Source: a virus. From it: a stretch of DNA of 64,000 nt. A program made the position numbers and the translations under genes. Location: the IMG/VR virus record IMGVR_UViG_3300045988_109049, one strand, 5' to 3'. Within the stretch, counting starts at the first letter, position 1, and every line of letters starts with the position of its first letter. The notes beneath the pieces were generated by a model. That model did no database searches and was not told the DNA's origin. It was given only the letters and a program-made list of their open reading frames with translations. Below are positions 23,067-34,503 of the stretch, one piece after another.

Positions 23067-23641
23067 TTAAAGTCAAAACATTCTTGCGTTAGCAAATTTT
23101 GAAGCTCTTCCAATAATCCAAGAGCAATTTGGGCTTCTCTGGCAGATCTGAAAGCAGCGAAGTTTTTGTAATCCTTGATACATCCTTTTCTCAGGTTATA
23201 AACTTTCATACTAATTATATCTACCATATATATGTCAGGGCTATTACTAATATGATCTTCATAATTGGCATCTAGATCGATAGCTATTTCCCTTAAGAAC
23301 ATAGTATATAGTGAAGCTGGACAAATATTAAGTAAGGTAAAAAGGAATTCCATAGAATTCTCTTCATTTAGACTGGATTTTTGGCATATTTTCCTAAGAT
23401 AATACTCTACATCTTTTTCAGATTTAAGGGGTCCTTCTTCTAGATCTTCTCTCTCTACTATTAAACCTTTTTTAATTAGTTTACTTATGCTATTAGAAAG
23501 TACAATAAATTCTTGAATTACAGAAAAGTAATCTCCCCTACGTACTCTTCTTATAACGTCACCCATTTTTACTTCTTCACCTGCTTTAGTGTAATACCTT
23601 TTCTTATTCATATTTTTCTGTTTAATGTCAATATTCTTCAT
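23063..23641 (-). CDS. hypothetical protein
   Basis: Co-oriented ORF, overlapping starts and stops. Confidence 0.6.
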   Translation of the reverse strand: MKNIDIKQKNMNKKRYYTKAGEEVKMGDVIRRVRRGDYFSVIQEFIVLSNSISKLIKKGLIVEREDLEEGPLKSEKDVEYYLRKICQKSSLNEENSMEFLFTLLNICPASLYTMFLREIAIDLDANYEDHISNSPDIYMVDIISMKVYNLRKGCIKDYKNFAAFRSAREAQIALGLLEELQNLLTQECFDFK

Positions 23642-24119
23642 ACCATTTTATGGAATACCCATAAATATCTCTTAATTTTTTATCTATTTCATCAAATAGA
23701 TAATGAGGCATCTTTGTCCCACTCCTTGCAAAGTATGCAGGATGCTCAATTTTTAAAATGTGATTAAATCTTTTATTAATATATAGATCAAATGTTTGAG
23801 CTTGCTTACCGAATAATACATATATAATGGAACAAGAACATTCAGATAGATTCTTTAATAGTTTGGCTATGAATGGTCTCCAAACCATGACATGAGAACC
23901 TATTTTATTCATCTCCACTGTGAGGGCAGAATTAATCATTAATATACCCTGCTTGGCCCAACTCTCTAAAGTTTGGTCAAAGATAATATTATTGTGGGGA
24001 ATTTCAAAATCTATTACTGCTTCTTTTATCACTTGAAGAGAAGGAGATAAATTCTCTTCTAAGACTTCCTTCCTATTTCCAAATAATACACCAGTGGCTA
24101 TTCCTTTCTGGGGATAAGG
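23628..24119 (-). CDS. ung: uracil-DNA glycosylase family 1, 3' exon
   Basis: Begins PYPQKGIATGVLFG, then QGILMINSALTV, VLFGKQAQ, IEHPAYFA. The intron-terminal G is at 24120. The ORF-track Met is a TTG inside the intron/exon junction. Confidence 0.8.
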   Translation of the reverse strand, partial: PYPQKGIATGVLFGNRKEVLEENLSPSLQVIKEAVIDFEIPHNNIIFDQTLESWAKQGILMINSALTVEMNKIGSHVMVWRPFIAKLLKNLSECSCSIIYVLFGKQAQTFDLYINKRFNHILKIEHPAYFARSGTKMPHYLFDEIDKKLRDIYGYSIKWYEEY

Positions 24120-24260
24120 CAATTTGTTACCCTAACAGCTCTTTATCTGTTAGTTCTATATGTTACCATATAGTTCGGACTATATCTTCATTGTTTACAA
24201 TGCAGGGCACTCGTGTCAGGTTTATTATTTGAGCTATTCACCTGTTAGTCTCTGAACCTT

Positions 24261-24965
24261 CTACATACTTTTATGCTCTTCTGTAGCTTGGCTGCTGATT
24301 GACTCATTAAGTTGTTCCAGCAATTCACCCTGTTTATCCAGAACCCTTCTTTTACTATAAGTAATTAATTTATACTGCATAGATGGAATAACAAAATCTT
24401 TAATCAGCTCTACAAATTTAGGAAAATCCTTAGCTTGCAGATACATACTATTATCATGCTTGCCTACAGTAAAATGTAAATCAAATTTATCTAATAATAT
24501 ATTAGCTAATAAAGATTGTTCTTCTAAAGTAAAAGAACAAGTAGATAAGATACATGAATTTTTAGTTACATAACCATCGTCCATATACCATATAGCTAAA
24601 CCTAAAGTATCCATATCTTTTACAAATTCTTCAAAAACTCTTTTATGACCATTAGAATCATAGTATTTTAATCTTATATTTGTAAAGATAGGATGTAATC
24701 TAGATTTAAATCTATACCCTACTAATTCGTGTGAATATCTTTTATTATTTATATGATACTCAACTATAGGAGATACTAAATTATACTTATTTAGTATATT
24801 CCATTTATACTCAAGATATTCTTTTTGTTTTTCAGAATGTGCTATACTAAGACACATATTCTTAGTTTTACTTCCTACTGAACAAAAACATCCATCTCCT
24901 AATAAACTTCCTATAAGAAGTTGTTTTAAGTCATTACCCATTTCTAAATCTTTATGATTCTTCAT
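24261..24965 (-). CDS. LAGLIDADG homing endonuclease (double-motif)
   Basis: LIGSLLGDGCF and LAIWYMDDGYV. The C-terminal codons overlap intron P4-P6 and R. Confidence 0.85.
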   Translation of the reverse strand: MKNHKDLEMGNDLKQLLIGSLLGDGCFCSVGSKTKNMCLSIAHSEKQKEYLEYKWNILNKYNLVSPIVEYHINNKRYSHELVGYRFKSRLHPIFTNIRLKYYDSNGHKRVFEEFVKDMDTLGLAIWYMDDGYVTKNSCILSTCSFTLEEQSLLANILLDKFDLHFTVGKHDNSMYLQAKDFPKFVELIKDFVIPSMQYKLITYSKRRVLDKQGELLEQLNESISSQATEEHKSM

Positions 24966-24987
24966 ACTATCAAAATTTTTAATAGTA

Positions 24988-24995
24988 CAAAGATA
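24988..24995 (-). promoter_or_regulatory. Candidate -7 element TATCTTTG for the intron LAGLIDADG gene
   Basis: The minus strand reads TATCTTTG about 25 nt upstream of the start at 24965. The -33 element matches 3 of 4. Confidence 0.45.
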
Positions 24996-25053
24996 AGGTA
25001 TTTGACCTAATATTACAATACTTTAAGTAAATTATTTATAGTTACTTATTAAA

Positions 25054-25239
25054 ATCCTGTCCCAGAAACACTACCTTCAAATCCTCGAATAGACATAACT
25101 TAAAAGCCCTAAACACATCAGTTTGCTTAGGGCATACAGACTTTATCATATACTCCTTAGATAATATATTCATTACATGATTAAGCTCTACTTTATCAAT
25201 GACCTTCATCCAACCTCCAAAATATTCTTCTGTCGTCAT
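25054..25239 (-). CDS. ung: uracil-DNA glycosylase family 1, 5' exon
   Basis: Ends ..LKVVFLGQD, the first half of GQDPY. The start overlaps the upstream ORF stop by 4 nt. Confidence 0.8.
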
Positions 25240-25946
25240 TCCAGTGCTAGTAAATCGTCTATATTATTTTCTAAAAGATTATTTAGAGATTCATTTATAT
25301 CTTCACCTTGAGGTGGAGGAATAGTCTTTATGAACTCTTCAGCATTATCTATTTTAACTTCCACTTGGCTTAGGTATCCATAATCTGCCAATTCCGAAAG
25401 GAATGCAGGAATAACCCTTTTAATTATATGTTTCTCTAATATACCTGGTCTATCTAACAAGAATAGTGTCGGAGACACATGTACTACTATCTTTCTAGTA
25501 GGAGCTAACCTGCGATCCTTCAATACGTAACAGGAGTTAACCATTAGTAACATATTCATGCATCTATCTAATATTATTCCTCTGCATCCATAGTACACCT
25601 GATCTTTACAAGACACTTTACTCAAGGAGAATGAATCAAATAAGGCTCTAATTAATGAGCTATTTCCTAATGCAGTATTCTCTTTTGAGTTTAAGAACAC
25701 AGGAGTAACTATTCTACATTTTCTTGACAACAACTCATCTAACTTACTCCCAGATAGTTTAGAGAATCGGCTCCTCAGTATAGTGGGAATCTCTATATTC
25801 ATATCCTCTTTTAGAGTAGCTTCAACAAGAATTCTATACGGGTTTGTATTGTTAATTCCATATAGTGGAGGGGCAGATACTGAGGGTCCACTAATTAATA
25901 TTGCTTTGTGTAAGTCCTTTATATATTTTCCTGAAAAAATCATCAT
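25236..25946 (-). CDS. hypothetical protein, last gene of the Ubl-system operon (acidic C-terminal tail)
   Basis: ATGA-type overlaps with the E1-like gene upstream and UDG downstream. No motif recognised. Confidence 0.7.
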   Translation of the reverse strand: MMIFSGKYIKDLHKAILISGPSVSAPPLYGINNTNPYRILVEATLKEDMNIEIPTILRSRFSKLSGSKLDELLSRKCRIVTPVFLNSKENTALGNSSLIRALFDSFSLSKVSCKDQVYYGCRGIILDRCMNMLLMVNSCYVLKDRRLAPTRKIVVHVSPTLFLLDRPGILEKHIIKRVIPAFLSELADYGYLSQVEVKIDNAEEFIKTIPPPQGEDINESLNNLLENNIDDLLALE

Positions 25947-26893
25947 GATATAGTTTTAAAATACATAGTTTCTGCATTATATTCAGTATAGAACGGAAGG
26001 TCCCTGTCTATAAGTGGATTACATTTATTTGCTATAAAATTGACAAACAAATTAACTATAACGGATCCAATCATATTAGCCATAAAAGTAGTTTGTTTAT
26101 AACTGCATACAGTAGGATCGGCCTCAAAGTCTGAGAACAAATAAGGTTCATATCTTCGTATATTATCCATATCGTCTCCTTTTATACAGAACACTTGAAA
26201 TTCTTCTGCTGCCAATCTGCCATCTATAAACAGACATTCTTCTCGTCTTTCTTTGGGTAATTCTAACACCTTATCAGTCCAATTCTTAAAAGCATCTTTT
26301 CTAGCTTTCATATTATCGAACCCACAAATAGTTATTCCAGTTATGGTTGAAGAGGTATCCAGTTTTTTAGTTAAAGCTGAAACACTATAATAGTCTGAAT
26401 AATTTTCTATCATATCTGCTATAGCATTTGCCTTATAAAGACCTATTTGAGACTTACTATATAACTGTCCAGACAAATTAACTGTTTCTACCTTATCTGG
26501 GTCATATAAAGTTAGTGACCTGACATCCATTCTAGATAACATAAATACTACATAGCTTCCTATCCCTCCTAATCCAGCTACAGTAATATTTTGCTTAAGT
26601 ATCTTATCGAACCAAAGGGCAGAGCTAAATCTCGATGTTTCTTCTTTTATTAATAAGGTCTCAGAATTTTCAGGAATTTTATCTATAACCAAATCCTGAT
26701 CTATTAGTGCAGATATTAACATAGAATGTTCTTCTTCATTAAGATAAAATCTACTACCTTCTACAGTAATTTCACTAACAAATTCTCCATCCATAATAAC
26801 TTGCCTAATACTGGAAATAGCCTTTCCTTTGATTAACTCTATTAAGTCTCCTACAGGTAGTGATTCATTAGTGTTTTGATCTAAGCTTTTCAT
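25943..26893 (-). CDS. ThiF/MoeB/E1-like adenylyltransferase (ubiquitin-activating-enzyme superfamily)
   Basis: Rossmann nucleotide loop VAGLGGIGSYVVFMLSR, then LYDPDKVETVNLSGQLY (E1 pattern D.D.V...NL.RQ) and GFDNMKARK (DN...R). Confidence 0.75.
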   Translation of the reverse strand: MKSLDQNTNESLPVGDLIELIKGKAISSIRQVIMDGEFVSEITVEGSRFYLNEEEHSMLISALIDQDLVIDKIPENSETLLIKEETSRFSSALWFDKILKQNITVAGLGGIGSYVVFMLSRMDVRSLTLYDPDKVETVNLSGQLYSKSQIGLYKANAIADMIENYSDYYSVSALTKKLDTSSTITGITICGFDNMKARKDAFKNWTDKVLELPKERREECLFIDGRLAAEEFQVFCIKGDDMDNIRRYEPYLFSDFEADPTVCSYKQTTFMANMIGSVIVNLFVNFIANKCNPLIDRDLPFYTEYNAETMYFKTIS

Positions 26894-26908: not shown

Positions 26909-28093
26909 TTAAAAAATATAATCACTTAATATTTTAATACATTCTTCTATGTATATATTACTATCAAGCTTCTCTAATTCTTCTTTGATTGCAGTAGCAC
27001 ATAATGTAACTATCTCATCATTATCCACTCCTTGTCCAACCAAATCCTCATCTATTGTATACCAACACAGGAATTCTATAAATCCTTCAGCCCACTTCTT
27101 GAACATCTCCAGTCCTTCTTCTCCCTTCCCAAATCTTCTTTCATATATAGGTATCATTCCTGCTACCCAAGATTTTATATTTATTTTACTTTCTCTAGGG
27201 ATAACCACACTTCCTGTTACCAATTGAAGGGTTAAAGACTTTGCCAGACCTTTATTAAAACTATACTTCTTTGTATCATCTCTAAATTTTAAAGTCTGCT
27301 GTCTCTGACCTAAATCATCTTCTTCCATTAGATTATATATATCCTTTTGTGTCAATGGTTCAAACTTGGAAAAAGGCTTATACGTGTGAAGAGGAGGATC
27401 AAATCTACTATTTATTTTCTGAATCTTAGACTCCTCTATCTCTTTAAGTCTGGATTCTAACTCTGTATATTCACTACACCCTTCTACTTCTATATCAAGA
27501 TAGTAATATTCCAATTCCTCAGTATTAGTTCCTTCAAAATTTCGAACTTCCTTGATTTGGGTGTTACCAAAACTAGGATAGCAGAAACTTTCCACAATAC
27601 ACTTGTTAACCAATCTTCTAGTTATGGCTGCTGTATAATTCCCTCTATTATTAACTATTAAGGAAACAAAGTGATTTCTATCCAATCCTTCCTCTTTCAG
27701 AGTTCTTATATCTGTTCCACTGAAGAAGGTATCCATGTTATTATGTGAATGGATTAATCCCATATGACAATCTAGCAGCTCAGGGTTGTTCGCTACATAA
27801 CTGCATACATCAGGAGACATATCAAACTCCGTATAAGCAGAACTTCCGATATCCATAACACATATATCTTCACATTTTATGATTAGACTTCTATCTTCAA
27901 AGGATCCCTCAGATGTAAAAAATAGAACTCCAGACCACTCATCTTTCCATACCTTTCTACATATGTATCTTATTTTTTCTTCTACTTTCTTCGGTATTAT
28001 CATTTTATAAGTAGTAGAATTCTTGGTCATCTGAATTATTTGTTCCTCTGCTTTTTTCTGACTCATCTCTGAGACTTGATTTATTCCTTCCAT
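26909..28093 (-). CDS. JAB/MPN+ (JAMM) metalloprotease with a C-terminal extension of about 200 aa
   Basis: Exact JAMM motif HSHNNMDTFFSGTD (HxHx7Sx2D), with an upstream Glu in KDEWSGVLFF. An alternative ATG at 28003 lies 1 nt after the upstream stop (TAAAATG) and would remove the 89-nt overlap. Confidence 0.8.
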   Translation of the reverse strand: MEGINQVSEMSQKKAEEQIIQMTKNSTTYKMIIPKKVEEKIRYICRKVWKDEWSGVLFFTSEGSFEDRSLIIKCEDICVMDIGSSAYTEFDMSPDVCSYVANNPELLDCHMGLIHSHNNMDTFFSGTDIRTLKEEGLDRNHFVSLIVNNRGNYTAAITRRLVNKCIVESFCYPSFGNTQIKEVRNFEGTNTEELEYYYLDIEVEGCSEYTELESRLKEIEESKIQKINSRFDPPLHTYKPFSKFEPLTQKDIYNLMEEDDLGQRQQTLKFRDDTKKYSFNKGLAKSLTLQLVTGSVVIPRESKINIKSWVAGMIPIYERRFGKGEEGLEMFKKWAEGFIEFLCWYTIDEDLVGQGVDNDEIVTLCATAIKEELEKLDSNIYIEECIKILSDYIF

Positions 28094-29318
28094 ATTTACA
28101 ATTTACTAATTTTAATATTCTATTCAATAAAAAACCTATTATATCTGGATTTAAGATGGTAGTAACATAATTATTAATATTATCTCCTTCTGTTATATGA
28201 ACTACTACTTCTTTCCCCTTAAATGTGCCCATCACTCCTAGATTAGATCTATTAATCTCTAAAACATCCCGGGTATTAGTAATTCTGTAAATACTATCCT
28301 TAAATACAAATACCTTGGTTAAAATATTTTCTAGAGACTCTTCCTCTTTTCTTATAATTCCTTTTTGATATATATATCTTCCTTTGGTATTAAACCAAGT
28401 GATAAATTCATTACTTACTAGTAGTATAAATTTCGTTATATTCATACCAATAGAGTAACCCCCATTTTTGTAATTGAAGATAAGTTTTTTCTGTTCTATG
28501 AAATATTTAATGAAATCATAAACCATAGGCTTCAAACATGATGGTATATATACCGAATCATTAAGACCGATATGATCTGTTTTAACACTTCTGTTAGAAG
28601 CCACCTCCTCTAATCTCCTATAAGGACCTCCACTTAGGGATTCTGTTGCTACATACTTCTCCAATTCTACACAAAACAGTCTCCAAATATCCAAATCATA
28701 AAGAACATTCAAGGAATTTACTGTATTTCTTATAGGACCACTTCCCAAACATACTTGAAGAAACTCTTTAGGGTTCCTCTTTGGTATTCCACATACATGG
28801 GAATGCATATAGTCACAAAAATACTGTGTCATTGTATATTCCCCTCTATTAAGAAGGAAGGATCCTACCATAGTACCGTCCATATCTATTGTTACTTTGA
28901 CATATAGTTCAGTAATATCTATAAAATGATCATATTCATTACTAACTCTTACTTCTGGGAAATATACTATGATGTGAGACTGTATCTTACTCCCTAATTT
29001 CAATATTACCTCATCCAGAAGATCCCTAATGCTAGGGATACTACTTAGAATTTCATCAGGTATGTCCTTTATTAATTGTATATTAGACATTTTTTTCTTT
29101 AACCTGGATGACTCCTCAGTGCCCAGTGCTGTTTCAATACTTATATTATCATAAGTTTTCGAGAATTCCTCTTCTATTTCTGAAATGGTAGGAACATCTT
29201 GTAAGTCTACCTTATCTTCTCCAAAGAAATCTTCGAATATTTCTAATACACTTGTTATATTTCGTAAACGTTCCTTACATATTGCTTCTATAACTTTCCT
29301 AGTTTTTTCCCCTATCAT
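28005..29318 (-). CDS. hypothetical protein, first gene of the JAB/E1 operon (candidate E2-like or nucleotidyltransferase-like partner)
   Basis: Clean 437-aa ORF. The segment YMHSHVCGIPKRNPKEFLQVCLGSGPIRNTVNSLNVLYDLDIW could be read as an HPN..C-like E2 motif or as a GS..DxD NTase motif. Neither reading is secure. Confidence 0.7.
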   Translation of the reverse strand: MIGEKTRKVIEAICKERLRNITSVLEIFEDFFGEDKVDLQDVPTISEIEEEFSKTYDNISIETALGTEESSRLKKKMSNIQLIKDIPDEILSSIPSIRDLLDEVILKLGSKIQSHIIVYFPEVRVSNEYDHFIDITELYVKVTIDMDGTMVGSFLLNRGEYTMTQYFCDYMHSHVCGIPKRNPKEFLQVCLGSGPIRNTVNSLNVLYDLDIWRLFCVELEKYVATESLSGGPYRRLEEVASNRSVKTDHIGLNDSVYIPSCLKPMVYDFIKYFIEQKKLIFNYKNGGYSIGMNITKFILLVSNEFITWFNTKGRYIYQKGIIRKEEESLENILTKVFVFKDSIYRITNTRDVLEINRSNLGVMGTFKGKEVVVHITEGDNINNYVTTILNPDIIGFLLNRILKLVNCKYGRNKSSLRDESEKSRGTNNSDDQEFYYL

Positions 29319-29328
29319 ATCATATAAT

Positions 29329-29361
29329 AAAAAAAAAGCAGGTAAGAAGAATCTTACCTGC
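29329..29361 (-). terminator. Intrinsic terminator after the Ubl-like gene
   Basis: Minus strand GCAGGUAAG-loop-CUUACCUGC followed directly by U9. Confidence 0.8.
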
Positions 29362-29378
29362 TAGTAAACAAACCTTTA

Positions 29379-30008
29379 TCAAACAAAATCAAACATTTCA
29401 TCAATCTCATCATCTGAGTAGGTGGAGAGCTCTTTTTTTGGCTTTACAGTGTTAGAGAAGTACTTACCATTAAGAATATTAGTAGCCTCCTCTCTTTCCA
29501 AAATTTCAGCATCTACCAAAGAGTCTAATAGGCATTTAATAGAGGTTTTCAATGAAGTTACTTCTTTCTCTAAATCACCTTTAGGAGCTTCTTTCTTAGA
29601 TGTAGAACCGTGATGCTCTTCAACCAGTTTCAGAAGATCTTCAGATTTACACAGAGTATAATTTTTCCCGTACTTTCTAATACAGGCATCCTCCAAGTGA
29701 TATTCTTTTATACTATTGTAAATCTCTTTTCTATTTACAGCTCCAGATCTAATCTTTTTATTAGGAGAAGTCAACATGAACACAAGCTCATTAGTAGTCT
29801 GTCCTTTATAAAGGACATCATGAGGAAGAATAGAATCATTATTGATTAATTCAGTTTTTGAAAGTCCTTCATAGAATGTCATGTCATGATAATTTACGCC
29901 TGATCTATCCAGATCTCTCTTCAGTTCCCCTAATGTAGTAGCACTAGACATAATTACTTTTTTCTCTTGTGTTCTCGTAGATACGATTGTGATTTTTCTT
30001 GCTTCCAT
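29379..30008 (-). CDS. candidate ubiquitin-like (beta-grasp) protein with a C-terminal HeH/SAP-like and acidic region
   Basis: The first roughly 89 aa (KITIVS..KKVIMSS..TLGELKRDLDRSG..MTFYEG..ELVFMLTSPNKKIRSG) have a beta-beta-alpha-beta-beta pattern like ubiquitin. YTLCKSEDLLKLVEEH looks HeH-like. Confidence 0.45.
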   Translation of the reverse strand: MEARKITIVSTRTQEKKVIMSSATTLGELKRDLDRSGVNYHDMTFYEGLSKTELINNDSILPHDVLYKGQTTNELVFMLTSPNKKIRSGAVNRKEIYNSIKEYHLEDACIRKYGKNYTLCKSEDLLKLVEEHHGSTSKKEAPKGDLEKEVTSLKTSIKCLLDSLVDAEILEREEATNILNGKYFSNTVKPKKELSTYSDDEIDEMFDFV

Positions 30009-30052
30009 AATTAATTTTATTAAATGTTTTTTTTTTTTACTTTTTTTTTCTT

Positions 30053-31054
30053 TTATTTTTCGAATAATTCTTTCATTATTTTAATGAAGTCATTCTTGTC
30101 TTGAAGAGAATGATAAAGGCCTGATATATCATTATCTCCTTCGAATTTAGGTAATATCAAATTAGTAAATCCTGTGGATTTAGCCAGTTTCTCCCCATCT
30201 ATAAGTCCTGCTTCATCATTATCAAATAATATGAATATCCTTTTATACCTTCTTTTAAGCTCATTAATAGCTGTGTTGCTTATTCTATAGCCTTCTCCCT
30301 GAACAGCTAAGGATGGAATTCCGGTATTAGCCCATAAGCAAAGAGCGTCTTTTACAGAAGAACATATGCATACTGAATCTCCATATTCAGGTATTTTTGT
30401 CCACAAACTAATTACAGACAAGTCATGTTTGTTACTCCATTTATAACCATCTTTGTTAAATGGTTGGTAAATCTTCAAAGTAACCTTTCCTTCTTTACGT
30501 TCTACATACGCATAGGCATATTTATCTGCTGCATACACTCTTCTCACTCCATCCTTTATCACGATCTTATGAGATATAGGATAAACATCAGCATATTTTA
30601 ACCATTCCAGACTCACTCCAAAGGATTCCCAGTACTCTATATCATGTTTCCTCCACTCTCTTATTTTGCATTGTAAGTCAATTGACTTATTATAACTTTT
30701 AGTAGTAATTATACTGCAGGAATTATAAGGTCTTATATTAGAATTATTAGAGAATCTAAGCATATCCTTATCTATTCTTTCTAAAACTTCTACATATGAT
30801 ATCCCCCATAGTTTAGACAGAAGGTCAAATAATCCTCCTCTGTCTCCTGTAGATAAATCAACATAAAATATTCTCTTTCCATCTCTAGAGTATAACCCAA
30901 AAGAAGGTCTTTTATCTTCTCTGAGAGGAGAATTTATTATACAAGGTATTTCAGTGATACCCAAATAAAAGTATAGAATACTAGATTCTGTTGTTTTCTT
31001 CAATATGTCCTCTAAGCTAATTGAAGATCTTCCAGAAATAAATGGCATATTCAC
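30053..31054 (-). CDS. DNA primase (Toprim domain)
   Basis: Toprim-like ICSSVKDALCLW..AVQGEGY and ILFDNDEAGL (DxD). Confidence 0.65.
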   Translation of the reverse strand: MNMPFISGRSSISLEDILKKTTESSILYFYLGITEIPCIINSPLREDKRPSFGLYSRDGKRIFYVDLSTGDRGGLFDLLSKLWGISYVEVLERIDKDMLRFSNNSNIRPYNSCSIITTKSYNKSIDLQCKIREWRKHDIEYWESFGVSLEWLKYADVYPISHKIVIKDGVRRVYAADKYAYAYVERKEGKVTLKIYQPFNKDGYKWSNKHDLSVISLWTKIPEYGDSVCICSSVKDALCLWANTGIPSLAVQGEGYRISNTAINELKRRYKRIFILFDNDEAGLIDGEKLAKSTGFTNLILPKFEGDNDISGLYHSLQDKNDFIKIMKELFEK

Positions 31055-31073: not shown

Positions 31074-32000
31074 TTATTTATCAAACCACGGAGAGGATTG
31101 CATTGGCATGTCAAAAGGAGATCCTGTCTGGGTCAAGTCATTATTGAAGTCAGTCGGTTCTATTGTGTACTCCTTTAAATCACAGACTTCAAATTCTGTA
31201 GTAGGATAAGCTCCAGCGGCTTTTCTGTTTTGAAGTTCTTCATCCAGTTTGCTATAATCTGCTACACTATTCTTCAGGAACTTTTGAACATAAACAGCTT
31301 GATACTGTTTGCCATCTTCAGTAGTTCTTACTCCGAATAGACCTTTGACTCTGTTCTTAGGCTGCAAAGAGATTGCTTCTTTCAATTCTGAATAATCTCC
31401 TTTGAAATAATTTTCAATCTTATCCAATCTAGCTTCCGCATCAGCTTTATTAGGAAGTTCTACCACTTCTCCATTGGATTTTCTATAGGATTTATTAGGA
31501 ATATTTAAATATGCCTTCAAGAATCCTGTAAGATCCTCTTCCCCTATATAAGCTGGCCTAAAATCAGCAGGTTCGAACCAATTAAGATTGGATGGAATAG
31601 TGCCAGATTTTGCATTTTCTATAGGCAGCCAAGTAGTTTCTCCATATTTATTTATTACTTGGACTTTGCTTCCATCTCTGTTATATCTAACCTCCCTGGC
31701 AATGAAGAAAGATATTTTAGTTTTCATATCAATTCCATTGCATTTCTCAGGGTCTGTCTGTACAATAAAATCTATTCTTACTTGAGGAACAGTATGTTTA
31801 TCACCTTCTGGACCAACTTCAACTTCACTTAAATATGAAGGACCATCATTAATAGTGGTATTATACAATTTTTCTAGTGTTTCCTTATCAGGATTAACAG
31901 CTAATACACCTACTGAGCCTACTCCAATATACTTTTTAACTACACTACCTTCTGTAGATTCACTACCCGTAGCAAAAGCCATAAAAATCTTGTTTGTCAT
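31074..32000 (-). CDS. putative single-stranded DNA-binding protein (T7 gp2.5-like class)
   Basis: Position between primase and helicase genes, and an acidic/aromatic C-terminal tail (..DFNNDL..PFDMPMQSSPWFDK). The call rests on context. Confidence 0.4.
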   Translation of the reverse strand: MTNKIFMAFATGSESTEGSVVKKYIGVGSVGVLAVNPDKETLEKLYNTTINDGPSYLSEVEVGPEGDKHTVPQVRIDFIVQTDPEKCNGIDMKTKISFFIAREVRYNRDGSKVQVINKYGETTWLPIENAKSGTIPSNLNWFEPADFRPAYIGEEDLTGFLKAYLNIPNKSYRKSNGEVVELPNKADAEARLDKIENYFKGDYSELKEAISLQPKNRVKGLFGVRTTEDGKQYQAVYVQKFLKNSVADYSKLDEELQNRKAAGAYPTTEFEVCDLKEYTIEPTDFNNDLTQTGSPFDMPMQSSPWFDK

Positions 32001-32026
32001 ATTTAATATTCTCTTTATATAATGTT

Positions 32027-32062
32027 AATAACAATAATAATAATAATAACAATAATAATAAT
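32027..32062. repeat. Exact 18-nt tandem duplication (aataacaataataataat x2) in the intergenic spacer
   Basis: Read directly: 32027-32044 equals 32045-32062. Confidence 0.9.
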
Positions 32063-32071
32063 AAATTTTGT

Positions 32072-32503
32072 TTATACAAATTCTTTCAAGGTAGGTCCTT
32101 GAACATTCTGCTCTTTATCTTCATGATCTATTTCTACAGGATTTGCTACAGAAGCTACTACAGGATCTGAGAAGACTTCATCATGAATCTCATATACCTT
32201 CTTCTCCTCATTGAATACTACTATATTCGACTTTGGTTCATATTTAGTTATTTTGATGGGTTTCCCGTTTCTATCCATCTTGCCAGTGTCCTCTACTACT
32301 CTAGTTATGAGCTCTTCACTAGAATGTCCAGTAAGTATTCTTACTCCAACTTCATGACCCTCTATCTCATTGATCAGATCTTCACATTCTTTGTTCAATT
32401 CTCTTATTTGCTCCAACAATTTATTCTTCTTGGTAACTAAGGAGCTTACATTTTGTGCTACTCTTTTCACAGTAGCTAGTTGTCTAATTGAAATTGTTTT
32501 CAT
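32072..32503 (-). CDS. hypothetical protein (N-terminal coiled coil)
   Basis: Co-oriented ORF. Confidence 0.6.
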   Translation of the reverse strand: MKTISIRQLATVKRVAQNVSSLVTKKNKLLEQIRELNKECEDLINEIEGHEVGVRILTGHSSEELITRVVEDTGKMDRNGKPIKITKYEPKSNIVVFNEEKKVYEIHDEVFSDPVVASVANPVEIDHEDKEQNVQGPTLKEFV

Positions 32504-32504
32504 A

Positions 32505-32765
32505 TTAATAAGCTAAAATTGTTTTGTTATTACTATCTCTTATTTCTACTATATTTAATTTATTCTTGTAGTACTCTAGTATTTCAGTAAAGCATCTATC
32601 CGCTACACCAATGCTAAAAAGGATTGTAATAAAACATTTTGTTAATTCTGTATCTTTATTATGTTCTACACAACAATACTCTAGGAACAACTCCATCATA
32701 GCTGTTCTAGTTAGTTTCCCTCCTGCATTGTTATTTATTATTTTAACTACGGTTTCCCTATCCAT
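32505..32765 (-). CDS. hypothetical protein
   Basis: Co-oriented ORF abutting its neighbours. Confidence 0.55.
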   Translation of the reverse strand: MDRETVVKIINNNAGGKLTRTAMMELFLEYCCVEHNKDTELTKCFITILFSIGVADRCFTEILEYYKNKLNIVEIRDSNNKTILAY

Positions 32766-33132
32766 AAATCTCCTTTAACTTATCTACTATTATAGATAAA
32801 TCATTAGGGATCTCATCAGGAAGATCATCCAATGCCCCAAGACTGTCTTTAGCAGGATACTCCCCGTCAAATTCTTTCACAAAGTGTTTAATGGGTTTTT
32901 TATTCTCTGCGTCATATCCTACCTTGCCAAATAGAATAATATCGAACTTACCTTCAGGTGTTATATAGTCATCCACCATCTTTCCAGTAGTCTTAAACTT
33001 ATAAGAAATGGAATCACCATTTTTATCTTTATACTCCTCATAGTGGGCACAACAGATAATATTCTTATTCTCCGGGAATCCCTTAAAGGCATCAAATATA
33101 AGACCCACACCATAGCCAATCTGCTTAGGTGT
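32758..33132 (-). CDS. AAA_24/Sak4-like ATPase, 3' exon
   Basis: Starts TPKQIGYGVGLIF after the intron-terminal G at 33133. Continues the ATPase core (IICCAHYEE). Confidence 0.65.
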   Translation of the reverse strand, partial: TPKQIGYGVGLIFDAFKGFPENKNIICCAHYEEYKDKNGDSISYKFKTTGKMVDDYITPEGKFDIILFGKVGYDAENKKPIKHFVKEFDGEYPAKDSLGALDDLPDEIPNDLSIIVDKLKEIYG

Positions 33133-33278
33133 CATTTTGTTACCCTAAAGGCTTTTTATCCTTTAGTTCTATAGTTTCTTGCATTGTTACCATAGTTCAG
33201 CATACATTTTCATCCTCTAATTGAGGAGTCGGATACTCTTGGATACATTATATTCTCTATATAATAGAGGTTCAGTAT

Positions 33279-33992
33279 CTATGCGTTACACTGTGCAGTC
33301 CTTTTATCTACTGCATTTAGCACGGTATTAAGTGCTTTATCCCTTTTTCTTTTCAAAAACACTGTAGCATCTTTATACAGATAGTCAAAGATAGCTTTTC
33401 TTACTTTTATACTATAACTAAAATGTAAACTCCAATAGGGAGTGGTCTTTCTATTCTCTTTATAGATTACCCATTTTAGTTCAGGTATAGCTGTTAAAAA
33501 CCTATCTTTAATTTGCTCTGCAAATTTAGGTGAGTTACAAATCATACTGAAATGTCTATCACCAATAGACCCATCTCCATCCATAAAACCTCTTATGAAA
33601 TCTCTTTCATACTCCTGAGGTATATTAGGAAATTCAAAATCAGAATCATAAGTTTTTCTTGGTTGTATATTATATAAAGACCTTAAATCATTTATAAGTT
33701 CCTTATCACATATTTGAAGAATAGTAGTTTGTTTCCTATTACCACTAGGTTGATAATATCTAAGATTGTTATCAGGAGCTATCTCTCTCTGTATTAATCT
33801 TAAAATTTCATCATCTTCAGATACACATCCAAATCTCAATCTTATTAATTTACTAGGTCTGTCTTTTCTTACTGATTCTTCTATAGAACCATCAGCTACT
33901 AAATAGCCTAAAATATAGGCTTTAACTTCAGAGTCGATTATTTTAAAATAATCACTTTTGTGTTCCTTCTTATTAGGAATAAAGTCTCTCAT
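33279..33992 (-). CDS. LAGLIDADG homing endonuclease (double-motif)
   Basis: ILGYLVADGSI and FIRGFMDGDGSI. Confidence 0.85.
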   Translation of the reverse strand: MRDFIPNKKEHKSDYFKIIDSEVKAYILGYLVADGSIEESVRKDRPSKLIRLRFGCVSEDDEILRLIQREIAPDNNLRYYQPSGNRKQTTILQICDKELINDLRSLYNIQPRKTYDSDFEFPNIPQEYERDFIRGFMDGDGSIGDRHFSMICNSPKFAEQIKDRFLTAIPELKWVIYKENRKTTPYWSLHFSYSIKVRKAIFDYLYKDATVFLKRKRDKALNTVLNAVDKRTAQCNA

Positions 33993-34012
33993 ATTATTTA
34001 TATTTTGGTTGG

Positions 34013-34044
34013 CAAATATATAAATAATTTATGAGATATGCAAT
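34013..34044 (-). promoter_or_regulatory. Candidate Bacteroidota-type promoter for the intron LAGLIDADG gene
   Basis: The minus strand reads ATTG (3 of 4 of TTTG), a 20-nt spacer, then TATATTTG (34020-34013). Confidence 0.45.
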
Positions 34045-34107
34045 ACCCTTCACCGTTTTTACCCGATTATTTTCACATAGATTGCTCTATGCAGGGACAC
34101 ACATTCT

Positions 34108-34503
34108 ATCCCATCCACCCTTCATGGCATTCGCCATATAGAAATCCTGAGCAAGATAATTCATATCATCTATAATAATATTCTTATAGGGTGATTTCTT
34201 TATTATGTTAACAATTTCTGCAACCGCTGCAAATCTGTCAAGTCCTGTAAGATTATCTACCTGTACCCTATTTCCTGTAGCAAGAGTATTTATATTTATA
34301 AGTTTCTGTGTAGGTTTACCTACATTCTCTACTCCGATACTACCCTCAATCAATTTAAAGTCAGGGTTAGGAACACCTCTGCCAATACATTGGATAACAT
34401 AGGTTTCTTTTGGATCAAGTCCCTTAATACCTAATTTATCCCTACCACAATAAGAAGTGGTTTTTCCAAACCCACTCTTTGCTAAAACAAGTATCTTAGC
34501 CAT
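34108..34503 (-). CDS. AAA_24/Sak4-like ATPase, 5' exon
   Basis: Walker A LAKSGFGKTTS and Walker B NIIIDDMNYL. The ORF-track tail RMCVPA* is probably intronic. Confidence 0.65.

Follow-up and report, generated by a model that had tools for sequence, protein, structure and literature searches.

We analysed a 64,000-nucleotide stretch of viral DNA (IMG/VR record IMGVR_UViG_3300045988_109049; below, the window) that came from a crAss-like phage (Steigviridae/Asinivirinae). In GenBank, the uncultured phage cr128_1 was nearest to it, with ~77% nucleotide identity over the region. The open reading frame (ORF) at 29379-30008, located in the replication module and transcribed from the minus strand, is a putative ubiquitin-like (Ubl) fusion precursor and a homologue of gp79 of phage PhiCrAss001. 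With modest confidence, we favoured the explanation that this ORF encoded the precursor of a phage-encoded ubiquitin-like modifier that was cut by a JAB metalloprotease and activated by an E1-like enzyme, both encoded next to it. We preferred this explanation because of the predicted fold, the invariant glycine, the fixed length of the tail before it, a natural split of the gene, the conserved gene cassette and the intact catalytic motifs of the two enzymes. The parts of the precursor were as follows.

29379..30008, minus strand: whole Ubl-fusion ORF, 209 amino acids plus stop, ATG start (ORF list and sequence)
29769..30008, minus strand: ubiquitin-like beta-grasp domain, residues 1-80 (AlphaFold2 β-β-α-β-β-β order; Foldseek)
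29742..29768, minus strand: flexible tail SPNKKIRSG, residues 81-89, ending in the invariant Gly89 (pLDDT, conservation, codons, gene split)
29610..29732, minus strand: conserved three-helix domain, residues 93-133 (AlphaFold2 helices 93-102, 106-113 and 122-133; pLDDT 83-91)
29472..29582, minus strand: helical segment, residues 143-179 (AlphaFold2 helices 143-166 and 172-179)
29382..29426, minus strand: acidic-aromatic C-terminal peptide, residues 195-209 (column conservation; short AlphaFold2 helix 199-205)

A sequence-only reading of the window had proposed a ubiquitin-like protein with an internal glycine that a neighbouring JAB protease could expose. The ORF itself was real, and the peptides quoted in that reading were found at the positions given for them. 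Moreover, the fold, Gly89 and the co-occurrence of the cassette genes lent support to its interpretation, as far as sequences and models can. The family of the fusion protein was large, with 5105 proteins in a 90%-clustered collection that formed 1278 clusters at 50% identity. Its members had no Pfam domain and no functional name, and in PHROGs the ORF fell in families of 'unknown function'. The family was also exclusive to phages: a scan of 185,579 species genomes for cellular homologues returned just three matches, all of which were crAss-like contigs mis-binned into metagenome-assembled genomes.

An AlphaFold2 model of the fusion protein, built on 120 homologues, had pLDDT values of ~88-97 across residues 1-80. 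In this part, strands were placed at residues 4-10, 16-21, 44-47, 65-67, 70-72 and 75-80 and a helix at residues 26-36, which reproduced the strand and helix order that had been proposed for residues 5-80. Accordingly, the model of residues 1-80 had the β-β-α-β-β(-β) arrangement within ~75-90 residues that characterises the ubiquitin-like beta-grasp superfold, and the prediction of a beta-grasp held in both the model and the Foldseek search. The top Foldseek matches in the PDB all had the ubiquitin superfold, namely the UBX domain of VCPIP1, the DWNN domain of Mpe1, DIX domains, ubiquitin variants and SUMO1 (E ~1e-3, probability 1.0, target-normalised TM-score 0.5-0.73, ~80-93 columns). In BFVD, members of the same family ranked first and were followed by ubiquitins of giant viruses.

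The last strand was followed by a tail of constant length. In an alignment of 150 sequences, made up of the query and 149 cluster representatives (50% identity), Gly89 (codon 29742-29744) was present in 150/150, Ser88 in 147/150 and Arg93 in 149/150, while Lys84, Lys85 and Ile86 were near-invariant. Thus, the glycine that had been pointed out at the domain boundary was conserved without exception among the cluster representatives. From the last strand to the glycine, the pattern T-x-x-x-K-K-I-x-S-G had a fixed length across the family, and the spacer between Gly89 and Arg93 varied from 2 to 7 residues. Such a constant P-side and variable P'-side would be the look of a processing site, and the predicted JAB cleavage site was between Gly89 and Ala90. 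Since pLDDT fell below 50 at residues 85-89, KKIxSG appeared to be a conserved motif inside a flexible linker, so that the domain carried the flexible tail after its last strand and the conserved terminal glycine of an activatable Ubl; we inferred that processing would expose Gly89 as a free C-terminus, to which the natural gene split behind the glycine and the intact JAB nearby point indirectly. In 81 loci the codons of the motif varied synonymously, with serine encoded by AGT, AGC, TCT, TCA or TCC (both codon families) and glycine by all four of its codons. Therefore, selection acted on the peptide and not on the DNA, and conservation at the DNA level, for instance as a homing site, was ruled out as the cause of the motif. 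Even the most distant relatives, from the Flavobacterium psychrophilum phages of the FpV4 group, kept the glycine as SGG in the tail ...RPKQVKSGG-RGDG....

In some phages the gene was naturally divided at this very position. Namely, the uncultured phage cr106_1 had the Ubl gene in two pieces: the first ORF ended in ...APEKKIKSG-KF*, a free-standing HNH endonuclease gene followed, with gaps of 1 and 15 nucleotides on its two sides, and the C-terminal half was a separate ORF beginning METKI-MTRNELIAEAKRLG.... An unsplit sibling (>=90% identity) was continuous there and read ...KKIKSG|AMSRAELIAEAKRLG..., so the HNH gene had been inserted exactly between Gly89 and the next residue. A group I intron behind the split was ruled out, since the HNH ORF filled the insert except for those 1 and 15 nucleotides, which left no space for an intron core, and since each half had its own stop and start codons. 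A second, divergent lineage with the split was represented by the IMG/VR loci L027 and L043. The HNH gene directly after the glycine codon was intact in L003 (6281-6796) and L043 (8323-8796) and decayed in L027 (8277-8438), where the split persisted all the same. The standalone Ubl had 91-92 amino acids (...KKIKSG-KF*); its 91-residue form made up a cluster of 23 sequences, and 89 contigs, the longest of 101 kb, carried one and the same split-Ubl sequence. Since the split occurred on many contigs and in two lineages, a genome in which the Ubl stands free, extended by 2 residues, and the C-terminal part is a protein of its own was a viable and widespread state. All split-gene genomes retained the JAB and E1 genes. 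As a separate observation, the HNH element looked as if it homed on the DNA coding for the conserved KKIKSG motif.

The C-terminal half of the precursor began with the three-helix domain, in which R93, Y97, I100, L105, G114, K115, N116, T118 and L125 were conserved. This part had been described as resembling a helix-extended-helix (HeH) domain. Its geometry was compatible with that description (helix 106-113, extended 114-121, helix 122-133 in the AlphaFold2 model), but the profile searches did not support the label: none of 28 diverse C-terminal halves matched the SAP, HeH, LEM or Rho_N families of Pfam at E up to 1, and for residues 93-133 PDB profiles gave no match, nor did hhalign with the Rho N-terminal domain. 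At the level of sequence, an HeH, SAP or Rho_N identity of these residues was thus unsupported. The linker at residues 134-142 was of low complexity, and its length and composition varied widely across the family. In one member, from phage cr126_1 (locus L088, 1922-2848; YP_010111725.1, 308 amino acids), the variable linker held a ribosomal L7/L12 C-terminal domain at residues 158-220 (PF00542, 5.1e-12). The acidic C-terminus noticed in the sequence-only reading was conserved in the family columns, with the motif S-x-Y-S-D-D-E-I-D-x-M-F and conserved Y197, S198, D199, E201, I202, D203, M205 and F206. Phage SSB and helicase proteins, which dock on replisome partners, typically have acidic-aromatic ends of this kind.

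One alternative was that the protein was never cleaved and worked whole as a scaffold, its beta-grasp serving as an interaction module, similar to those of UBX and UBL adaptors, that was tethered by a flexible linker to a helical part binding DNA or the replisome and ending in an SSB-like acidic tail, while the JAB and E1 proteins acted on another substrate. The conserved C-terminal peptide would fit such a role, as it is reminiscent of how phage SSB and helicase proteins end, and the gene was always in the replication module, next to the primase gene and near the helicase and UDG genes. Domains that are not conjugated (UBX, DIX, DWNN) were also among the top Foldseek matches, and the split variant shows that the halves are separable and no more than that. 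However, a scaffold leaves unexplained why an invariant Ser-Gly lies at a fixed distance from the last strand and is followed by a variable spacer. It equally leaves unexplained the co-occurrence of the E1 and JAB genes in the same phage records. Moreover, none of the other cassette proteins had a conserved C-terminal glycine to offer to the E1, their C-termini being ...FYYL (p437), ...DYIF (JAB), ...KTIS (E1) and ...LALE (p236). We considered the scaffold explanation unlikely.

The modifier-precursor explanation draws on the genes downstream of the precursor, which were the following.

29328..29362, minus strand: intrinsic-terminator-like hairpin with T9 (11-bp stem, 4-nucleotide loop) between the Ubl and p437 genes
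28005..29318, minus strand: p437, a conserved cassette protein (571 homologues; AlphaFold2 pLDDT 75)
26909..28093, minus strand: JAB/JAMM metalloprotease domain (~residues 27-160) with an uncharacterised C-terminal region of ~230 amino acids (PF14464)
25943..26893, minus strand: ThiF/E1-like adenylating enzyme of 316 amino acids, a single Rossmann domain with a 90-residue N-terminal extension (PF00899, 6.7e-18)
25236..25946, minus strand: p236, the fifth and poorly conserved cassette gene (in 71/84 loci)

The order primase, Ubl fusion, p437, JAB, E1, p236 was found in 65 of 84 related loci, and the remaining loci were either truncated at the edge of a contig or broken up by endonuclease genes; the order was conserved in every sufficiently long locus examined. 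In PhiCrAss001 the cassette corresponded to gp79, gp78, gp77, gp76 and gp75, and it was also present in DAC15 and in the Flavobacterium FpV4 phage group. Among GenBank phages, the Ubl and E1 genes occurred in the same 74 records. The neighbouring enzymes to which the sequence-only reading had referred were confirmed as a prokaryotic JAB protein (26909-28093) and a ThiF-family E1 (25943-26893).

The JAB protein was a homologue of PhiCrAss001 gp77 and matched PF14464 above the family cut-off (2.8e-6). In 69 sequences the motif ExnHxHx7Sx2D (E52, H115-x-H117, S125, D128) was >=95% conserved, so that by its sequence the protein qualified as a putative JAB/JAMM protease; it also weakly matched an Rpn11-like protein. 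As called, the p437 and JAB ORFs overlapped by 89 nucleotides (28005-28093), but translation of the JAB may in fact begin further downstream, as >80% of the homologues conserved a methionine at JAB residue 10. Overlaps of ~60 nucleotides in most related loci suggested translational coupling.

The E1-like protein was a homologue of PhiCrAss001 gp76, with the ThiF domain at ~residues 96-305. In PDB profile searches its closest solved relative was UBA5 (6e-7), followed by TcdA, MccB and UBA7, and in PADLOC it matched the Cap2 E1-E2 (8.5e-13) and BilD (8.8e-8), the latter match being limited to residues 98-201. The residues G107xGGIGS, D131, D133, D193, R198 and C263 were >=95% conserved, with Cys263 inside a conserved CSYKQTTF stretch. 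Thus, the protein had the apparently intact nucleotide-binding site and the putative catalytic cysteine of a cognate E1. The best NCBIfam matches were ThiF models (9.5e-20), yet these scored 71 bits against a cut-off of 159 bits, and all 28 matched NCBIfam models (including ThiF, MoeB, PRTRC, UbaA and Cap2) were below their cut-offs, so the protein was not placed in any of these families. The match to the model of the SAMP-activating E1 was weak (7.9e-7).

The p437 protein was a homologue of PhiCrAss001 gp78 and had invariant residues that included H172-S-H174, C190-x-G-x-G-P and C216. Residues 96-240 followed the order α-β-β-β-loop(HSH)-Cys-α-α, which loosely resembled the UBC fold, although this was an unconfirmed impression. 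As an E2, p437 was rejected, since hhalign against a UBC alignment assigned a probability of 0.1, no UBC match was found in the PDB and no BilB or E2 model of PADLOC was matched. The p236 protein, a homologue of PhiCrAss001 gp75, was rejected as an E2 too: PDB profile, Pfam and hhalign searches were negative and it had no conserved cysteine. Thus, no E2 of the UBC fold was found in the cassette when p437 and p236 were searched with hhalign and PADLOC, and p437 also with Foldseek.

A cassette with no detected E2 could also be read as a sulfur-carrier pathway. Here the cleaved Ubl would be adenylated and thiocarboxylated, similar to ThiS, MoaD, TtuB, CysO and QbsE, and would provide the sulfur when the phage has a nucleotide, tRNA or cofactor thio-modified, with p437 as the sulfurtransferase or modification enzyme. 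The ThiF models as the best NCBIfam matches of the E1 agree with this, as do the invariant Cys190, Cys216, His172 and His174 of p437, and JAB, E1 and Ubl without an E2 is the make-up of the CysO/Mec+ and QbsE/QbsD pathways (Iyer 2006, PMC1779556). On the other hand, the scores for ThiF, MoeB and TtuC-type families were far below the cut-offs, and in the PDB and PADLOC the E1 came closest to the conjugation enzymes UBA5, Cap2 and BilD. In addition, neither Pfam nor NCBIfam detected a rhodanese, cysteine desulfurase or PAPS-reductase-type domain in the cassette. The tail of the phage Ubl also ends in Ser-Gly, whereas sulfur carriers typically end in Gly-Gly. A role as a sulfur carrier therefore appeared quite improbable to us.

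The defence-library matches of the E1 (Cap2 E1-E2 and BilD were the closest) bear on another alternative, in which the cassette mimicked or jammed host immunity based on Ubls, such as type II CBASS with Cap2/Cap3, Bil or Bub; for example, host conjugates could be stripped by the JAB, while a decoy role or the modification of a host defence protein would fall to the Ubl and E1. Counter-defence would suit a family that is confined to phages, and a 2026 preprint mentions in passing a gut-phage protein family matching UBA5, with a speculative link to bacterial antiphage defence proteins resembling those of ubiquitination (10.64898/2026.03.05.709809). However, the fixed place in the replication module and the retention in every long-enough genome of two distant phage groups looked more typical of a core than of an accessory function, and we judged counter-defence very unlikely as the explanation. 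It concerns the target, and as such it would be compatible with the mechanism of the modifier-precursor explanation.

The terminator that the sequence-only reading had placed behind the Ubl gene was real, with an 11-bp stem, a 4-nucleotide loop, T9 and a folding z-score of -4.7. Of 57 distinct intergenic regions from related loci, at least 36 had a hairpin and T-run 3' of the Ubl gene, with differing stem sequences; this was a lower bound because most of the other regions had been clipped by ORF calling. Such a terminator fits expression of the Ubl above that of the enzymes. An Rfam match to L20_leader (29324-29440, minus strand) over the end of the Ubl gene and the hairpin was below threshold (32.1 bits against a gathering score of 58.7) and was probably due to chance.

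Several points weigh against the modifier-precursor explanation. The Foldseek E-values were only ~1e-3, and kinship of the Ubl to ubiquitin, ThiS or MoaD at the sequence level was rejected, as neither Pfam nor the PDB profile search gave a match to these families and hhalign against ubiquitin returned a probability of 0.3, too low to place the domain in that family. Since no such similarity was found, the evidence supported the Ubl fold and not homology. The tail ended in Ser-Gly and not in Gly-Gly, and the E1 carried NLSGQ at the site where ThiF and MoeB carry NLxRQ. No E2 was recognised in p437, for which the best Foldseek match in the PDB had an E-value of 0.24 and no match was found in Pfam, PADLOC, NCBIfam or the PDB profiles, nor in p236, which had no match in Pfam, the PDB, PADLOC or NCBIfam. 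The split variant was equally compatible with two domains that worked as separate proteins. Finally, the cut by the JAB, the adenylation and conjugation of the Ubl, its targets and the part played by p437 were all inferred.

According to the modifier-precursor explanation, the Ubl and the helical protein would be translated as one fusion, which the JAB metalloprotease would cut after Gly89 (...KKIRSG|A...). This would free an 89-residue beta-grasp protein with a C-terminal glycine and, at the same time, a 120-residue helical protein with the acidic-aromatic C-terminal peptide. The ThiF-like E1 would then adenylate Gly89 and probably form a thioester on Cys263. Transfer of the Ubl to its target might be direct, as in the SAMP, TtuB and Urm1 systems that lack an E2, or might proceed through p437, in which case the invariant Cys190, His172 and His174 would make p437 a new kind of conjugating enzyme. 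The hairpin-U terminator would let the Ubl substrate be made in excess over the enzymes. Given that the gene lies in the replication module and its product has an SSB-like tail, the targets may be replisome or host proteins.

For the cleavage step, the precedents in the literature are strong. Among the known systems, type I Bub (6E.1/DUF6527) was one of the nearest parallels. Its operons encode BubAB (Ubl-E2), BubCD (JAB-E1) and BubE; Bub works via oxyesters, and the JAB of BubCD cleaves the BubAB fusion immediately after a conserved glycine (PMC11601596). In both cases the Ubl is the N-terminal part of a fusion, the JAB of the operon cuts after a conserved glycine (shown for Bub, predicted here) and the operon also encodes an E1-like adenylating enzyme. 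In contrast to Bub, the fusion partner in the phage is all-helical and not an E2, the JAB and E1 are separate ORFs, the E1 keeps the conserved Cys263 where Bub uses oxyesters, and the cassette is encoded by a lytic phage and not in a bacterial defence island. A Pfam search of the phage cassette for the DUF6527 protease was negative, and we did not assign the cassette to type I Bub.

The bacterial ISG15-like antiphage system Bil (BilABCD; PMC10557695; Hor et al. 2024) has the same gene order of Ubl, second protein, JAB and E1. In Bil, BilC pre-processes BilA (PMC10557695), and the JAB likewise trims the Ubl to a bare C-terminal glycine, which for the phage is a prediction; the phage E1 also matches BilD. 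Unlike in Bil, p437 is not recognisable as an E2, the phage E1 is a single-domain protein rather than one of the IAD-AAD-CYS architecture, and the Ubl carries a functional-looking C-terminal protein of 120 amino acids and is phage-encoded. Thus, neither an E2 nor the type of E1 that define Bil was recognised in the cassette.

A phage precedent is TAPI/TAPK of lambda and T1. For lambda TAPI, a Ubl linked to a C-terminal domain, cleavage by the TAPK JAB has been predicted (Iyer 2006, PMC1779556). Here too, a phage beta-grasp with a conserved C-terminal glycine is followed by a linker and a second small domain, and the predicted cut at the glycine is ascribed to a JAB peptidase encoded nearby. 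However, TAPI/TAPK has no E1, belongs to the tail-assembly module and has its JAB fused to NlpC/P60, whereas the present cassette has an E1 and belongs to the replication module; no sequence similarity was detected between TAPI/TAPK and the phage Ubl cassette.

The composition of a Ubl, a single-domain ThiF-like E1 and a JAB without an E2 is shared with archaeal SAMP/UbaA/HvJAMM1, Thermus TtuB/TtuC and Urm1/Uba4 (PMC4443979, PMC9574740). The Ubls of these systems are cellular, end in Gly-Gly, serve also as sulfur carriers and have no fusion partner of 120 amino acids. The phage E1, moreover, scored far below the cut-offs of these families.

In eukaryotes, ubiquitin is made fused to eL40 and eS31, pro-UFM1 has a short C-terminal extension, and a dedicated protease frees the terminal glycine. 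The phage precursor is similar in that the modifier is N-terminal to another protein and that, among solved structures, the phage E1 comes closest to UBA5, the E1 of UFM1; the 2-residue KF extension of the split form also parallels the 2-residue extension of pro-UFM1. It differs in that there is no sequence homology between the Ubls, the protease is a JAB and not a cysteine protease, and the fusion partner is another one. In a targeted literature search we came across no account of such a cassette in crAss-like phages, and the prokaryotic Ubl precedents that it yielded were bacterial or archaeal.

The cassette is also a hotspot of homing elements, which usually are attracted to conserved and important phage genes. 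In some relatives, the JAB and E1 genes were each interrupted by insertions of ~1 kb with LAGLIDADG-type ORFs (L025, 10472-11206; L035, 10427-11323 and 12741-13568; L040, 10531-11403). In L053 (8756-9295) an HNH ORF lay between the Ubl and p437 genes, and L065 and L069 had an insert of similar size there. In the window, the neighbouring UDG gene (23628-25239, minus strand) was interrupted within its GQD|PY motif, with exon-like ORFs at 25042-25239 and 23628-24122 (the latter PF03167), and the insert contained a LAGLIDADG_2 endonuclease ORF (24261-24965, 1.9e-33) and a group I intron core (24156-24403; RF00028, 85.9 bits, E 5e-21). An ATPase gene, homologous to intact 'ATPase'/Sak4-like genes of cr128_1 and FpV4, seemed to be split as well (34087-34503 and 32758-33135, minus strand) around a LAGLIDADG_3 ORF (33279-33992, 2.2e-7); within 32758-34503 no Rfam group I intron was found at E up to 0.1. 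Two further sequence tracts were observed in the region. One was a 34-nucleotide tract between the primase stop and the Ubl start (30027-30060) that was T-rich on the plus strand and A-rich on the coding strand. The other was a (TAA)13 microsatellite (32026-32064) just upstream of the start of a 308-residue ORF (31074-32000) and within the 3' end of the ORF at 32072-32503 (minus strand).

Taken at sequence level, the results suggested that a group of crAss-like phages runs its own ubiquitin-like modification system. The components were already known, as was the principle of a partner-fused Ubl that is freed at its glycine by a JAB. What was new was that the cassette is of phage origin and has a fixed place in the replication module, that the Ubl is fused to this partner, that no E2 is recognisable and that two of the core proteins are uncharacterised. 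Ubl conjugation has recently been shown in bacteria (CBASS Cap2, Bil, Bub), always as host defence against phages, and here the logic would be on the side of the phage. A stronger version of the proposal would credit crAss-like phages of the PhiCrAss001 group (Steigviridae/Asinivirinae), and those of the FpV4 group, with a complete and self-sufficient Ubl conjugation system, with a fusion precursor, a phage JAB, a phage E1, p437 as a conjugating enzyme without the UBC fold, and replisome or host proteins as targets during infection. We hold this version to be tentative and rather doubtful; if true, it would be the first Ubl conjugation system encoded by a bacteriophage, as far as our literature search showed, and would add a new class of E2-like enzymes.

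For the phages themselves, the cassette gives a predicted function to five 'hypothetical' genes, which all the related loci of sufficient length that we examined had in common. It is core and syntenic in one of the most abundant phage groups of the human gut, and since it is present in the culturable PhiCrAss001 (gp75-gp79) and in DAC15, it is directly testable. The precursor offers a natural example of a Ubl fused to an unrelated protein with a predicted release at the glycine, and p437 may prove to be a non-UBC conjugating enzyme. If the system is active, these phages would turn Ubl chemistry to their own ends, be it to replicate or to counter host defence.

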